A DNA stretch of 20,033 bases from the NCBI RefSeq assembly GCF_003334315.1, contig NZ_QOWR01000069.1, one strand, 5' to 3'. A program made the translations under genes and the position numbers. Origin of the DNA: Escherichia coli. Lineage in GTDB: Bacteria > Pseudomonadota > Gammaproteobacteria > Enterobacterales > Enterobacteriaceae. The notes beneath the pieces were generated by a model. The model saw only the letters and a list, made by a program, of their open reading frames with translations. It did not search any database and was not told where the DNA came from. This document shows positions 9,030-19,630 of the stretch, one piece after another. Each line of letters starts with the position of its first letter. Position 1 is the first letter of the stretch.

Positions 9030-9176
9030 GATTCGCCTGAACATGCCCTTTTTTCGTAAGTAAGCAACATAAGCTGTCACGTTTTGTGATGGCTATTAGA
9101 AATTCCTATGCAACAACTGAAAAAAAATTACAAAAAGTGCTTTCTGAACTGAACAAAAAAGAGTAAAGTTAGTCGC

Positions 9177-9285
9177 GTAGGGTACAGAGGTAAGATGTTC
9201 TATCTTTCAGACCTTTTACTTCACGTAATCGGATTTGGCTGAATATTTTAGCCGCCCCAGTCAGTAATGACTGGGGCGTTTTTTA
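9177..9285 (+). ncRNA. spf: Spot 42 small regulatory RNA
   Basis: Sequence gtagggtacagaggtaagatgttctatctttcagacc... ending in the terminator hairpin ccccagtcagtaatgactgggg plus T-run, recognised as Spot 42; -10-like taaagt at 9164-9169. Confidence 0.9.
9195..9242 (+). CDS. spfP: 15-aa small protein encoded within Spot 42 (SpfP-like), MFYLSDLLLHVIGFG
   Basis: ATG at 9195 preceded by AGAGG; 15 sense codons then TGA, translated by hand. A dual-function Spot 42 peptide has been reported. Confidence 0.5.
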   Translation: MFYLSDLLLHVIGFG

Positions 9286-10313: not shown

Positions 10314-10556
10314 ATAGAGCGAGGACGCTAACAGGAACAATGACTCAGGATGAGGGTCAGGAGCGCCAGGAGGCGAAGACAGAGGATTGTCAGGAAGACA
10401 AACGTCCGGAGACGTAATTAAACGGAAATGGAATCAACACGGATTGTTCTGGCTAATGGAAAAACAGGGTGTGTTGGCGGCCTGCAAGGATTGTAAGACC
10501 CGTTAAGGGTTATGAGTCAGGAAAAAAGGCGACAGATTACTCTGTCGCCTTTTTTC
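10314..10556 (+). ncRNA. csrC: CsrC, CsrA-sequestering sRNA
   Basis: About 243 nt with 14 GGA triplets, mostly as AGGA/CAGGA, far above chance; -10-like taaagt at 10301-10306; ends in terminator aaaaaaggcgacag...ctgtcgcctttttt; sits between engB and yihI. 5' end approximate. Confidence 0.85.
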
Positions 10557-10624
10557 TTTGCTTGCTTTCTGTTAGATTCCGCCGCAAATCTATACTGAAT
10601 AAAACGGCTAAAAGACGAACCATT

Positions 10625-11143: not shown

Positions 11144-11317
11144 ATGGGCCTTCCCGTTCTGCTGATAACCCTTCCGGTTATATGTTATCTGGTGTGGTTA
11201 TTCGTTAAACTACAGCGGTTGTCGCGGCGACAAAAGTGGCTGCGCAACCGGCTGATGACCCGAAACGGGCATCCGCCGGTACGCCGTAGCCGCCAGAGAC
11301 GCCATCGGAAGGAGTGA
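11144..11317 (+). CDS. Candidate 57-aa small membrane protein ORF (hypothetical): MGLPVLLITLPVICYLVWLFVKLQRLSRRQKWLRNRLMTRNGHPPVRRSRQRRHRKE
   Basis: Hand translation of the yihI-hemN intergenic region. Hydrophobic N-terminal helix plus Arg/Lys-rich tail; TGA stop (11315-11317) overlaps the hemN SD. Weak SD of its own; below the ORF-track size cutoff. Confidence 0.3.
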   Translation: MGLPVLLITLPVICYLVWLFVKLQRLSRRQKWLRNRLMTRNGHPPVRRSRQRRHRKE

Positions 11318-11319
11318 GC

Positions 11320-12693
11320 ATGTCTGTACAGCAAATCGACTGGGATCTGGCCCTGATCCAGAAATATAACTATTCCGGGCCACGATACACCTCGTACCCG
11401 ACCGCGCTGGAGTTTTCAGAAGACTTCGGCGAACAGGCGTTTTTACAAGCCGTGGCGCGCTATCCTGAGCGTCCATTATCTCTCTACGTACATATCCCGT
11501 TCTGCCATAAGCTTTGTTACTTCTGCGGTTGCAATAAGATTGTTACTCGCCAGCAGCACAAGGCCGATCAGTATCTGGACGCGCTGGAGCAAGAAATCGT
11601 CCATCGTGCACCGCTGTTCGCCGGGCGTCACGTCAGCCAATTGCACTGGGGCGGCGGAACGCCGACGTATCTGAATAAAGCGCAAATCAGCCGCCTGATG
11701 AAGCTGCTGCGCGAAAACTTCCAGTTCAATGCCGATGCGGAGATTTCGATCGAAGTCGATCCGCGGGAAATCGAACTGGATGTACTCGATCATTTACGCG
11801 CCGAAGGCTTTAATCGCCTGAGCATGGGCGTGCAGGACTTCAACAAAGAAGTGCAACGTCTGGTTAACCGCGAGCAGGATGAAGAGTTCATCTTTGCACT
11901 GCTTAACCATGCGCGTGAGATTGGTTTTACCTCCACCAACATCGACCTGATTTACGGCCTGCCGAAACAGACGCCGGAGAGTTTCGCCTTTACCCTGAAA
12001 CGTGTGGCGGAGCTGAACCCCGATCGTCTGAGTGTCTTTAACTACGCGCATCTGCCGACCATTTTTGCTGCTCAGCGCAAAATCAAAGATGCTGACCTGC
12101 CGAGTCCGCAGCAAAAACTCGATATCCTGCAGGAAACCATCGCCTTCCTGACGCAATCGGGCTATCAGTTTATCGGTATGGATCACTTTGCCCGTCCGGA
12201 TGACGAGCTGGCGGTGGCCCAGCGTGAAGGCGTGCTGCATCGTAACTTCCAGGGCTACACCACTCAGGGCGATACCGATCTGCTGGGGATGGGCGTTTCC
12301 GCCATCAGCATGATTGGCGACTGCTACGCGCAGAACCAGAAAGAGTTGAAGCAGTACTATCAGCAAGTGGATGAACAAGGCAATGCGCTGTGGCGTGGTA
12401 TTGCGCTAACGCGTGATGACTGTATTCGCCGCGATGTGATTAAGTCGCTCATCTGCAACTTCCGTCTGGATTACGCCCCTATTGAGAAACAGTGGGATTT
12501 GCACTTCGCTGATTACTTTGCGGAAGATCTCAAGCTGCTCGCCCCGTTAGCAAAAGATGGGCTGGTGGATGTGGATGAGAAGGGAATACAGGTGACGGCG
12601 AAAGGTCGCTTGCTGATCCGCAACATTTGCATGTGCTTTGATACCTATCTGCGCCAGAAAGCGCGGATGCAGCAGTTCTCTCGGGTGATTTAA
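11320..12693 (+). CDS. hemN: Oxygen-independent coproporphyrinogen III oxidase HemN (radical SAM)
   Basis: Radical-SAM CxxxCxxC motif (CHKLCYFC); start taken at ATG 11320 (MSVQQIDW..., 457 aa) rather than the ORF-track GTG at 11314. Confidence 0.95.
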   Translation: MSVQQIDWDLALIQKYNYSGPRYTSYPTALEFSEDFGEQAFLQAVARYPERPLSLYVHIPFCHKLCYFCGCNKIVTRQQHKADQYLDALEQEIVHRAPLFAGRHVSQLHWGGGTPTYLNKAQISRLMKLLRENFQFNADAEISIEVDPREIELDVLDHLRAEGFNRLSMGVQDFNKEVQRLVNREQDEEFIFALLNHAREIGFTSTNIDLIYGLPKQTPESFAFTLKRVAELNPDRLSVFNYAHLPTIFAAQRKIKDADLPSPQQKLDILQETIAFLTQSGYQFIGMDHFARPDDELAVAQREGVLHRNFQGYTTQGDTDLLGMGVSAISMIGDCYAQNQKELKQYYQQVDEQGNALWRGIALTRDDCIRRDVIKSLICNFRLDYAPIEKQWDLHFADYFAEDLKLLAPLAKDGLVDVDEKGIQVTAKGRLLIRNICMCFDTYLRQKARMQQFSRVI

Positions 12694-12700
12694 ATAGTGA

Positions 12701-12739
12701 ATGGCGCTTCGTTTACAAAGTAGAAAACGAAAGCGCCAT
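12701..12739. terminator. Imperfect hairpin just after the hemN stop, putative terminator
   Basis: Inverted repeat atggcgcttcgttt / aaacgaaagcgccat flanking a 10-nt loop; no strong T-run on the + strand, so efficiency is uncertain. Confidence 0.4.
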
Positions 12740-12760
12740 CAATGTGCTGAGAACAAGATT

Positions 12761-12797
12761 GCCTGATGCGGCGCTGGTCGCGTCTTATCAGGCCTAC
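12761..12797. repeat. REP element
   Basis: gcctgatgcggcgctggtcgcgtcttatcaggcctac, a classic REP palindrome shape. Confidence 0.7.
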
Positions 12798-12830
12798 GAC
12801 TTTCTCCGCATCCGGCATAAACAACGAGCT

Positions 12831-12941
12831 TCAGCTAAACAGCCCAATCATCGCGGCACACAGCACGGCAGCAACGGCAGTTTGCGGTGTGTGGCTGTCA
12901 ACTGCGCCACTCGATACCAGATTAATTATTGATTCCAGCAT
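12831..12941 (-). CDS. yshB: 36-aa small protein (MLESIINLVSSGAVDSHTPQTAVAAVLCAAMIGLFS), YshB-like
   Basis: Hand translation of the minus strand; GGGGAGAG SD 5 nt upstream of the ATG; length and position between hemN and glnG match what I recall for yshB. Below the ORF-track cutoff. Confidence 0.6.
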   Translation of the reverse strand: MLESIINLVSSGAVDSHTPQTAVAAVLCAAMIGLFS

Positions 12942-12994
12942 AATGACTCTCCCCGTTTTCCGGGCAAGATCATACTGAACTTATCGGAACAGTA

Positions 12995-13021
12995 AAGCGC
13001 AAAATACCAGCAATTTGCGCT
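12995..13021 (-). terminator. Putative terminator downstream of glnG
   Basis: Inverted repeat aagcgcaaa / tttgcgct with about 10-nt loop, 32 bp downstream of the glnG stop; followed on the minus strand by a short T-rich stretch. Confidence 0.35.
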
Positions 13022-13052
13022 CAATAATCAATCTTTACACACAAGCCGTGAA

Positions 13053-14462
13053 TCACTCCATCCCCAGCTCTTTTAACTTACGCGTCAGAGTGTTGCGGCC
13101 CCAGCCGAGTAGCCGCGCCGCTTCCTGTTTATGCCCCTGCGTATGTCGCAACGCGGTCGTCAGTAACGTCCGCTCCAGCTCTGGCTGCGCTTCGGAAAGC
13201 AGATTTTGATGACCGGAACGTAGCGCTCTGTCTGCCCACTGCGCAAGAAGCGTCGCCCAACTGTCCGGTTGCATTTGCGAAGTACTCTCCGCAACCGTTG
13301 ATTCAAACAGTTCGCCAGGCAAATCCTGAATCAACACTTCCTGTCCGGCAGCCATTACCGTTAGCCAGCGGCAGGTGTTTTCCAGCTGGCGCACGTTGCC
13401 TGGCCACGCCAGACGCGTCAACGCGGCTTCGGTTTCCGGATGCAGCAACTTCGCTTCTACGCCCAGTTCTCGCGCGGCAACCTGTAAAAAATGGCGCGCC
13501 AGGCGGGGAATATCTTCCCGACGCTCACGCAGCGGCGGCAGATGAACGCGGATAACGTTCAGGCGGTGGAACAGATCCTCACGGAACTTACCTTCCTGCA
13601 CCCGCTGTTCGAGATTCTGGTGAGTGGCAGCGATAATCCGCACATCCACTTTCACCGGCGCATAGCCGCCAACGCGGTAAAACTGGCCGTCTGCCAGCAC
13701 GCGCAGCAAACGCGTCTGCACATCCAGCGGCATATCGCCAATTTCATCGAGAAATAATGTACCGCCATCAGCCTGTTCAAAACGCCCCTGACGAATGGTA
13801 TTCGCGCCGGTAAACGCGCCTTTCTCGTGACCAAACAGTTCTGATTCGATCAAATCCTTCGGGATAGCCGCCATATTCAGAGCGATAAATGGCGCTTTGG
13901 CTCGCGGACTGTGGCGATGCAGGGCATGAGCGACCAGTTCTTTACCGGTGCCGGATTCGCCGTTAATCAGCACGCTAATAGAAGAACGCGAAAGCCGACC
14001 GATAATACGGAACACGTCCTGCATGGCTGGCGCTTCGCCGATGATATCGGTCGTTGGGCCGTTAAGCTGAACATTACGCGGCTGCTGCTGTTCCTGGTAA
14101 TGACTGATGGCGCGCTCAACCAGCGCCACGGCTTCGTCGATATCAAACGGTTTGGGCAGATAATCAAACGCCCCTTGTTGATAGGCGCTGACGGCAGCAT
14201 CCAGATCGGAATGTGCGGTCATAATGATGACCGGAAGCATCGGATGGCGCTGTTTAATCTGCTTGAGCAGCGCCAGCCCGTCCATTCCCGGCATACGGAT
14301 ATCTGAAAGCAGCACATCCGGCGTTTTGCTCGCCAGCGCCTCCAGTACCTCCGCGCCGTTCTCAAATGTCGTACAGGTTAAACCCGCTCCAGCGAGCGCA
14401 CGTTCAAGCACCCAACGGATGGAACTATCGTCATCGACTACCCAGACTATCCCTCGTTGCAT
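13053..14462 (-). CDS. glnG: Nitrogen regulation response regulator NtrC (sigma54-dependent bacterial enhancer-binding protein)
   Basis: Start at [12 protein letters not shown] (469 aa), not the ORF-track upstream Met; receiver domain with the phospho-acceptor Asp in [15 protein letters not shown]+ Walker [15 protein letters not shown] sigma54-contact motif, C-terminal HTH. Confidence 0.97.
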
Positions 14463-14473
14463 AAACGTCACCT

Positions 14474-15523
14474 TTATTTCCTGATAGGCAGGTAAACCGA
14501 GAACTCGGTATGCCCTGGCCAACTGGTAAATTCAATTTTGCCTGAATGCTGATCAATCAAATTACGAGCGATGGATAAGCCAAGCCCGGTGCCACCTTCG
14601 CGGCCGCTGACCATCGGGTAAAACAGCGTATCCTGCAAATGAGGCGGAATGCCTGGCCCGTTATCTTCCACATCAATCCGCGCCGCCAGCCGGTAGCGTT
14701 CGCCGTGTAAGGTCAGTTGAAACGCGGTGCGGGTACGCAGAATGATTTCACCGCCTTCCGGCCCCAGCGCCTGTAGCGCATTGCGCACAATATTCAGCAA
14801 GACCTGTTCAATTTGATCCGGGTCGTGCGCCAGTTCTGGCAGGCTGGGGTCGTAATCACGAATCAACCGCACGTTGTCCGGCAGTTCCATCGACACCAGC
14901 GTTACCACGCGTTCAGCCACTTTGTGAATACTTTCGGTAACGCGCGTACCGGGCAGCTGCGGCCCCAACAGACGGTCGACCAGATTTCGCAGCCGGTCCG
15001 CCTGTTCGATAATCACTTTGGTATATTCGAGTAGTGATGGGTCAGGTAACGCTTTGCTGAGCAGCTGCGCCGCGCCACGTAAACCGCCAAGCGGATTTTT
15101 AATCTCATGTGCCAGGCCGCGCACTAAATCACGGGCAGCAACCTGCTGGGCGTGCTGTAGCTGTTCCTGACTTAAGCGGCGCTGGTTATCCATCGGAGCC
15201 ATCTCCAGCAGGATCATGCCGTCCGGCATACGCTGGGCCGTCACAGAAAGGATATGCGAGCGCCCGTCGATGACCAGCGTCACTTCGTTATCGGTAAAAC
15301 CTTGCCCCGCCTCCAGACTTTCTTGCATCAGCTCGATATTTAATGAGAAGTAGCTCAACAGTTCCGGTAACGGTGTACCAAACAATTTGCGGGAGCTTTG
15401 GGCGAGCAGTTGTTGCGCGGCGGGGTTGGCGTAATGGATCGCCAGGTTGTCATCGATTAACAAAATACTGTTAATCAGCGAGTTGAGGATCTGCCCAGCA
15501 TCGGGCTGCGTGCCTGTTGCCAT
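14474..15523 (-). CDS. glnL: Nitrogen regulation sensor histidine kinase NtrB
   Basis: 349 aa; H-box HEIKNPLGG and G-box-type ATP-binding motifs (GTGLGLS); 11-bp gap to glnG. Confidence 0.97.
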
Positions 15524-17350: not shown

Positions 17351-17439
17351 CGCACCATCGTGCAAAAGGGCTGCACCACGATGTGAATGTTGCACCAATA
17401 TAGTGCTTCAATGGAAACATTAAGCACCATGTTGGTGCA
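17351..17439 (-). promoter_or_regulatory. Cluster of NtrC enhancer binding sites upstream of glnAp2
   Basis: Repeated TGCACC/GGTGCA half-sites: tgcaccaatatagtgct (17391-17407), agcaccatgttggtgca (17423-17439), weaker copies at 17351-17388. Confidence 0.65.
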
Positions 17440-17590
17440 ATGACCTTTGGATAACCCTTTTTATGCTCCGTGAAAGCGATCACAAAGGGACTCTGCAATA
17501 CTTGTTTGCGGAGGATGTTTGTGATCCTGTTTTGTAGTGCGATTAATCCGTGTACAATAACGCGCTATTTCTAATGCCTGAGGCAAAGTT

Positions 17591-19414
17591 GTGATCGAAA
17601 AATTGCGTAATATCGCCATCATCGCGCACGTAGACCATGGTAAAACCACCCTGGTAGACAAGCTGCTCCAACAATCCGGTACGTTCGACTCTCGTGCCGA
17701 AACCCAAGAGCGCGTGATGGACTCCAACGATTTGGAGAAAGAGCGTGGGATTACCATCCTCGCGAAAAACACCGCTATCAAATGGAATGATTACCGTATC
17801 AACATCGTTGATACCCCGGGGCACGCCGACTTCGGTGGTGAAGTTGAACGTGTAATGTCCATGGTAGACTCAGTGCTGCTGGTGGTTGACGCATTTGACG
17901 GCCCGATGCCGCAAACGCGCTTCGTAACCAAAAAAGCGTTTGCTTACGGCCTGAAGCCGATTGTTGTTATCAACAAAGTTGACCGCCCTGGCGCGCGTCC
18001 TGATTGGGTTGTGGATCAGGTATTCGATCTGTTCGTTAACCTCGACGCGACCGACGAGCAGCTGGACTTCCCGATCGTTTACGCTTCTGCGCTGAACGGT
18101 ATCGCGGGTCTGGACCACGAAGATATGGCGGAAGACATGACCCCGCTGTATCAGGCGATTGTTGATCACGTTCCTGCGCCGGACGTTGACCTTGACGGTC
18201 CGTTCCAGATGCAGATTTCTCAGCTCGATTACAACAGCTATGTTGGCGTTATCGGCATTGGCCGCATCAAGCGCGGTAAAGTGAAGCCGAACCAACAGGT
18301 CACTATCATCGATAGCGAAGGCAAAACCCGCAACGCGAAAGTCGGTAAAGTGCTGGGCCACCTCGGTCTGGAACGTATCGAAACCGATCTGGCGGAAGCT
18401 GGCGATATCGTGGCGATCACGGGCCTTGGCGAACTGAACATTTCTGACACCGTTTGCGACACGCAAAACGTTGAAGCGCTGCCGGCACTCTCCGTTGATG
18501 AGCCGACCGTTTCTATGTTCTTCTGCGTTAACACCTCGCCGTTCTGCGGTAAAGAAGGTAAGTTCGTAACGTCTCGTCAGATCCTGGATCGTCTGAACAA
18601 AGAACTGGTACACAACGTTGCGCTGCGCGTAGAAGAAACCGAAGACGCCGATGCGTTCCGCGTTTCTGGTCGTGGCGAACTGCACCTGTCTGTTCTGATC
18701 GAAAACATGCGTCGTGAAGGTTTCGAACTGGCGGTATCCCGTCCGAAAGTTATCTTCCGTGAAATCGACGGTCGTAAACAAGAGCCGTATGAAAACGTGA
18801 CGCTGGACGTTGAAGAACAGCATCAGGGTTCTGTAATGCAGGCGCTGGGCGAACGTAAAGGCGACCTGAAAAACATGAATCCAGACGGTAAAGGCCGCGT
18901 ACGTCTCGACTACGTGATCCCAAGCCGTGGTCTGATTGGCTTCCGTTCTGAGTTCATGACCATGACTTCCGGTACTGGTCTGCTGTACTCCACCTTCAGC
19001 CACTACGACGACGTACGTCCGGGTGAAGTGGGTCAGCGTCAGAACGGCGTACTGATCTCTAACGGTCAGGGTAAAGCGGTCGCGTTCGCGCTGTTCGGTC
19101 TGCAGGATCGCGGTAAGCTGTTCCTCGGTCACGGTGCAGAAGTTTACGAAGGTCAGATTATCGGTATTCATAGCCGCTCTAACGACCTGACTGTAAACTG
19201 CCTGACCGGTAAGAAACTGACCAACATGCGTGCTTCCGGTACTGACGAAGCCGTTGTTCTGGTTCCGCCTATCCGCATGACTCTGGAACAAGCTCTGGAG
19301 TTCATCGATGATGACGAACTGGTAGAAGTGACCCCGACCTCTATCCGTATTCGTAAACGTCACCTGACGGAAAACGATCGTCGTCGCGCCAACCGCGCAC
19401 CGAAAGACGATTAA
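17591..19414 (+). CDS. typA: Ribosome-associated translational GTPase BipA/TypA
   Basis: 607 aa, GTG start with GAGG SD; G-domain motifs [18 protein letters not shown]; EF-G-like domain architecture. Confidence 0.97.
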
Positions 19415-19431
19415 TTTCGTTTTTTAGTCAT

Positions 19432-19464
19432 AAAAAACCTGCCAGCGATGGCAGGTTTTTTTTT
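19432..19464 (+). terminator. Rho-independent terminator of typA
   Basis: A-run, stem cctgcca / tggcagg with 4-nt loop, then nine T. Confidence 0.85.
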
Positions 19465-19630
19465 GCCTGTCGTGAGCACTCAGCAATGCGAGTATCTCCC
19501 TTATAAGTCTGTGGTTACGTCAATAGAGAGCTTTGTCACAATTATCTGCAAAGTCATACGCCGTTAATTGCTTTCTTTTTTGGCGTAAGCGTAAGATGCC
19601 TCATCTGGTTTAAACCAAAAGGATTAAACA

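Follow-up and report, generated by a model that had tools for sequence, protein, structure and literature searches.

Sequence and comparative analysis of the small-membrane-protein gene yshB (36 codons) in the glnG-hemN interval of an Escherichia coli contig

The stretch of Escherichia coli DNA analysed here, 20,033 nucleotides in length and hereafter called the window, carries on its minus strand an open reading frame of 36 codons that is flanked by hemN (plus strand, ending at 12693) and by glnG and glnL (both on the minus strand), the arrangement of the E. coli glnALG-yshB-hemN region. The features of the locus are listed in Table 1. The frame reads ATG CTG GAA ... AGC TGA and its translation is MLESIINLVSSGAVDSHTPQTAVAAVLCAAMIGLFS; the ATG is the first start codon past the preceding in-frame stop, and no in-frame start lies upstream of it. 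Both neighbouring genes are over-extended in the mechanical ORF list of the window, glnG being given as 489 aa from a TTG (13053..14522, minus strand) against 469 aa in the annotation (13053..14462), and hemN as 459 aa from a GTG (11314..12693, plus strand) against 457 aa (11320..12693).

Table 1. Coordinates of the features at the yshB locus (positions in the window)
Feature	Position	Strand	Remarks
yshB CDS	12831..12941	-	36 codons and a TGA stop at 12831..12833; ATG at 12941
Shine-Dalgarno sequence GGGGAGAG	12947..12954	-	5 nt upstream of the yshB ATG; best duplex with the 16S anti-SD, -8.1 kcal/mol
yshB sigma-70-type promoter (predicted)	12969..12996	-	-35 TTTACT (12996..12991), 16-nt spacer, -10 TATGAT (12974..12969)
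Hairpin GCGCAAA..TTTGCGC, putative glnALG terminator	12995..13022	-	downstream of the glnG stop; 9-bp MFE stem
Strong hairpin between convergent yshB and hemN	12700..12740		MFE -20.5 kcal/mol, z = -5.2
REP-type imperfect inverted repeat, yshB-hemN spacer	12760..12817		carries the 91-bp deletion junction 12770/12771
70-aa antisense ORF, spurious	12766..12978	+	no NCBIfam match, unannotated, frame broken in 44/57 loci

Comparison of the 36-aa product with NCBIfam revealed a match to the equivalog NF033841, 'YshB family small membrane protein', at 72.1 bits (E = 2.4e-20; the curated cutoff is 34 bits), with residues 1-36 aligned over profile positions 1-40 of 40. A query of 371 nt that includes the ORF was matched in all 5,426 of 5,426 complete RefSeq E. 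coli genomes, and the feature under the match was annotated as 'yshB: YshB family small membrane protein' in all rows shown. The annotated yshB CDS of strain 203740 (WP_000893994.1) is nucleotide-identical to that of the window, while the CDS of a K-12-like strain is one synonymous base away. YshB of E. coli K-12 (b4686; WP_000893994.1) has the same protein sequence, the same glnG and hemN flanks, and the same Shine-Dalgarno sequence and promoter, and the window differs from the K-12 locus in the downstream non-coding spacer only. A search of Pfam-A with YshB gave zero matches even at E <= 10, and a PDB sequence search gave zero matches at E <= 1; NCBIfam alone has a model of the family.

We take the minus-strand frame to be yshB, a real protein-coding gene for a small, predicted inner-membrane protein of the Enterobacterales, with a probability of about 0.95. 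The existence of the gene is already known, since it is annotated and its product has been detected experimentally, and the finding is correct but ordinary; biologically it brings nothing new on the existence of yshB. The original prediction, made from the letters of the window, had placed here a 36-aa minus-strand ORF with its ATG at 12941 and a strong Shine-Dalgarno sequence, and this is confirmed. Its suggestion that the small, partly hydrophobic peptide is YshB-like is supported by the NF033841 score and by the identity of the CDS to that of WP_000893994.1, which occurs with the same sequence at the same position in the reference genomes. The remark that a cutoff of 60 aa hides a real small gene in this window also holds, yshB being 36 aa long.

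A HMMER search of 1.84 billion cluster representatives returned 15 YshB matches at E <= 1e-3, many of them calls of this one gene with a frameshift or a wrong start, which points to a tiny family. When one genome per species was scanned with a peptide pattern, 58 yshB loci were recovered, of which 57 are complete; the scan used a single pattern, and common species such as K. pneumoniae and S. enterica subsp. enterica do not appear among its loci, which does not amount to absence of the gene. The loci are found in Escherichia, Salmonella, Citrobacter, Klebsiella, Kosakonia, Enterobacter, Pluralibacter, Trabulsiella, Phytobacter, Pseudenterobacter and Leclercia and, more distantly, in Izhakiella and in one species each of Erwinia, Brenneria and Serratia. 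The order glnG, a spacer of about 110 nt, yshB and convergent hemN was found in 55 of the 58 loci and is identical in the window; the three exceptions are two loci cut at an end and the Brenneria locus, which has no hemN match. Salmonella YshB is an orthologue encoded at the same locus with the same invariant core, and the proteins of S. enterica subsp. diarizonae and subsp. arizonae are 94% and 86% identical, respectively, to that of the window.

The yshB ORF is intact in 57/57 complete loci, each with an ATG, 35-41 codons and a G-rich Shine-Dalgarno sequence upstream, which is kept at a similar distance in all orthologues. Alignment of the 46 distinct sequences of 36 codons showed that 19, 11 and 34 of the 36 columns are variable at codon positions 1, 2 and 3, respectively. 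The dN/dS values (NG86) of the orthologues against the window lie between 0.03 and 0.25 and the median pN/pS is 0.17. The codon-position pattern, together with the low dN/dS and pN/pS, points to a protein-coding frame under purifying selection, and the conservation of the 36 codons, which had been proposed as a check on the frame, is thereby borne out. The quantified selection signature and the smallness of the family, with 15 out of 1.84 billion cluster representatives, are modest additions to what is known of yshB, as are the set of invariant residues and the conservation of the promoter described below.

Published experiments also bear on the translation of yshB. Native YshB was detected by top-down mass spectrometry in a study that remarks on the missing tryptic sites of the protein (PMC12529367), a remark matched by the lack of lysine and arginine throughout the family. 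Absence of a translation signal had been named as a result that would speak against the gene; the detection of the native protein is the opposite result. A search of the supplement of PMC10117436 for ribosome-profiling or small-protein tables gave no yshB entry. More than 11,000 copies of YshB per stationary-phase cell are predicted according to PMC7549839 and PMC10502375, both of which cite Li et al. 2014 for the figure, and plasmid-borne His-tagged YshB was not detectable (PMC7549839). RseP, an S2P intramembrane protease, cuts tagged YshB both in vivo and in vitro, and YshB was assigned to its class I substrates; 4/4 assays were positive, one with RseP from a plasmid, one with chromosomal RseP, one with a 3xFLAG construct and one with purified enzyme. 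Cleavage was shown with tagged constructs only, and the authors caution that authentic YshB is still to be examined (PMC10470546). The tagged protein is also cut by a periplasmic protease that was left unidentified (PMC10470546). YshB of Salmonella contributes to virulence and to replication inside host cells (Bomjan, Zhang and Zhou 2019, J Bacteriol 201:e00314-19, as cited in PMC10470546 and PMC9731577); the phenotype is described for Salmonella YshB only, and the papers examined report none for E. coli.

The scan of positions 12600..13150 for sigma-70-like sites gave the yshB promoter as the only one. In the glnG-yshB spacers of 21 aligned species, from Escherichia to Serratia and Erwinia, the motifs CTTTAC and GTA..AT show no variation, in contrast to most other positions, and the spacer keeps a length of about 110 nt. 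Judged from the sequence, we infer that yshB is transcribed from this conserved sigma-70-type promoter, and the start site is placed on the same grounds. The hairpin downstream of the glnG stop is a putative terminator of glnALG. Its energy is not unusual (z = -0.5), its stem arms are largely conserved, and some genera show apparent paired changes, as judged by eye. An intrinsic-terminator scan of 12600..13150 called none, this hairpin being missed because its U-tract is weak. The 3' arm of the stem abuts the yshB -35 element with an overlap of two bases, and both are conserved across genera.

The hairpin between yshB and hemN has no canonical U-run. In Klebsiella, Trabulsiella, Pluralibacter and Serratia, hairpins of equal strength but unrelated sequence occupy this position between yshB and hemN, which suggests that the structure is probably a bidirectional terminator shared by the two genes.

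Analysis of the YshB protein showed that it is hydrophobic (GRAVY 1.12), with a C-terminal hydrophobic stretch of 15-19 residues that is short and lies at the extreme C-terminus, and that it has no K or R. Among 36 distinct YshB sequences the invariant residues are M1, H17, T18, P19, Q20, T21, A22, A25, L27 and C28, so that the core of the family can be written H-T-P-Q-T-A..A.LC, and lysine and arginine are absent from all 36. The proteins of Kosakonia, Brenneria and Serratia have an insertion of 4-5 residues in the inter-helix linker, and H17-A22 and C28 are still invariant in them. A single membrane-spanning region was predicted for YshB by TMHMM or TOPCONS (PMC10470546). An AlphaFold2 model built on the family alignment has a helix at residues 2-13, a break at 14-16 and a second helix at 17-35 (mean pLDDT 74.7, pTM 0.35). 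At 19 residues, the C-terminal helix of this model could cross the bilayer and leave the invariant HTPQT at one interface; because there are no basic residues, the topology is not predictable by the positive-inside rule.

The remaining point of interest is the molecular partner of YshB and its mechanism. We take yshB, which lies behind the glnALG operon and faces convergent hemN, to be independently transcribed and translated; its conserved promoter is about 30-55 nt upstream of the ATG and would give a short leader with a strong Shine-Dalgarno sequence. We propose that YshB would use its transmembrane helix, together with an invariant interfacial face formed by HTPQT and Cys28, to bind a larger protein or complex of the inner membrane, and that RseP-dependent intramembrane proteolysis would limit the level of YshB. 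By analogy, YshB may thus act in the manner of MgrB, AcrZ, MgtS and CydX, which bind larger membrane proteins, with RseP trimming its amount; we hold this proposal tentatively, at a little below even odds. Like YshB, these four proteins have fewer than 50 aa and a single hydrophobic helix and are missed by length cutoffs, and two of them, MgrB and CydX, are also RseP substrate candidates (PMC10470546). They have no sequence relationship to YshB, and the comparison concerns only the way in which the proteins work. Their partners are known (PhoQ for MgrB, AcrB for AcrZ, MgtA for MgtS and cytochrome bd for CydX), unlike that of YshB, and YshB differs from all four in being without any basic residue.

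A more specific role was also considered, in which YshB would be no generic small membrane protein but a dedicated membrane cofactor or a ligand-binding subunit, for instance a metal- or tetrapyrrole-linked partner of an anaerobic-respiration or haem-biosynthesis complex. The idea arises because His17-Thr-Pro-Gln-Thr and Cys28 are invariant, basic residues are missing and the position relative to hemN is fixed. Separately, transcription of yshB could be coupled to read-through of the nitrogen operon, because the yshB -35 element lies directly against the 3' arm of the putative glnALG terminator. Conservation and adjacency form the whole basis on which the two ideas could be entertained, and we consider both improbable.

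A rival reading takes the transcript, rather than the protein, for the main product of the locus. A locus that is mainly a non-coding RNA, either derived from the 3'UTR of glnALG or an independent sRNA, with an ORF that is incidental or secondary in what would be a dual-function RNA, would suit a short transcript with its own promoter, and the Salmonella study is said to have come upon yshB during a search for sRNAs. A comparable place, downstream of ntrBC, is occupied by the Pseudomonas sRNA NrsZ (PMC9731577). Against this stand the codon-position pattern and the low dN/dS, which reflect selection on the protein, and the retention of the ATG, Shine-Dalgarno sequence and open frame in 57/57 loci; moreover, no Rfam family matched at the yshB locus, and the protein is detected by mass spectrometry. 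A purely non-coding locus was rejected on the grounds of the purifying selection and of this detection, and a mainly RNA-based function is very unlikely. An additional role of the RNA beside the protein is compatible with all of these points, and yshB may have one.

If YshB is accepted as the product, its small size and hydrophobicity, and its placement beside the Hok proteins among the class I substrates of RseP (PMC10470546), might suggest the membrane-damaging toxin of a type I toxin-antitoxin system, like Hok, Ldr or Ibs. In every genus examined the gene occurs once only, with its syntenic position unchanged, and the very high estimated abundance of the protein is hard to reconcile with a toxin. 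Type I toxin mRNAs typically have long structured leaders, in contrast to the short leader and the strong, accessible Shine-Dalgarno sequence of yshB, and YshB has neither a charged C-terminal tail nor basic residues. An antisense promoter-like site was sought in 12600..13150 and none was found, the only promoter-like site there lying on the sense strand, and no Rfam antitoxin RNA matched at the locus. The toxin was rejected on the single syntenic copy and on the two negative searches, and its chance is negligible.

An equally negligible chance is left to the plus-strand ORF being the real gene and the 36-aa frame an accident of the antisense frame. The plus-strand ORF is the longer of the two, spans all of yshB and is open both in the window and at some loci of Escherichia and Citrobacter; in E. 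coli the frame stays free of stops since its third codon positions fall on those of yshB. Its product has no NCBIfam family match, it is without RefSeq annotation in the E. coli genomes compared, and its frame has at least one stop within the yshB overlap in 44/57 orthologous loci. Its start and N-terminus lie in the REP element and are lost already in E. albertii, and the excess of third-position over second-position variation fits the minus-strand frame instead. The ORF was rejected on its stops and on the missing family match, as had been foreseen when it was called more likely spurious.

yshB, read as the minus-strand gene, also stands out among the short frames of the window. A six-frame survey found 135 ORFs of 30-59 aa, 38 of which start with ATG, and yshB is the sole one of these 38 with a Shine-Dalgarno duplex of -7 kcal/mol or stronger. 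The case is of use as a positive control, in which a genuine gene of less than 60 aa was recovered without tools, starting from a Shine-Dalgarno signal, and the longer antisense ORF was rightly rejected. The strongest Shine-Dalgarno-like duplex of the window (-9.3 kcal/mol) belongs to a 39-aa ORF with a TTG start at 10387..10506 (plus strand) that lies inside the CsrC sRNA (10314..10567). Its signal presumably stems from the GGA-rich CsrA-binding motifs of CsrC, which mimic a Shine-Dalgarno sequence, and the ORF is likely a false positive for small-ORF hunting based on this signal. Besides CsrC, the Rfam matches at the gathering threshold elsewhere in the window, all on the plus strand, are Spot 42 (9167..9285) and ES222 (17402..17509), and a match to STnc370 at 19399..19467 (plus strand) is marginal, with 55.6 bits against a threshold of 54.

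The only local oddity is the spacer downstream of yshB. Alignment with strain 203740 and the K-12-like strain revealed that the REP array of the window is 91 bp shorter, with CGCATCAGGCA direct repeats on either side of the deletion. A junction probe of 42 nt, designed against seeding on the long form, was matched in 18 of 5,426 complete E. coli genomes. The short spacer is a rare but real deletion allele produced by REP-REP recombination that leaves yshB untouched, and the 18 genomes that carry it include porcine ETEC, poultry, bovine, wastewater and human isolates.
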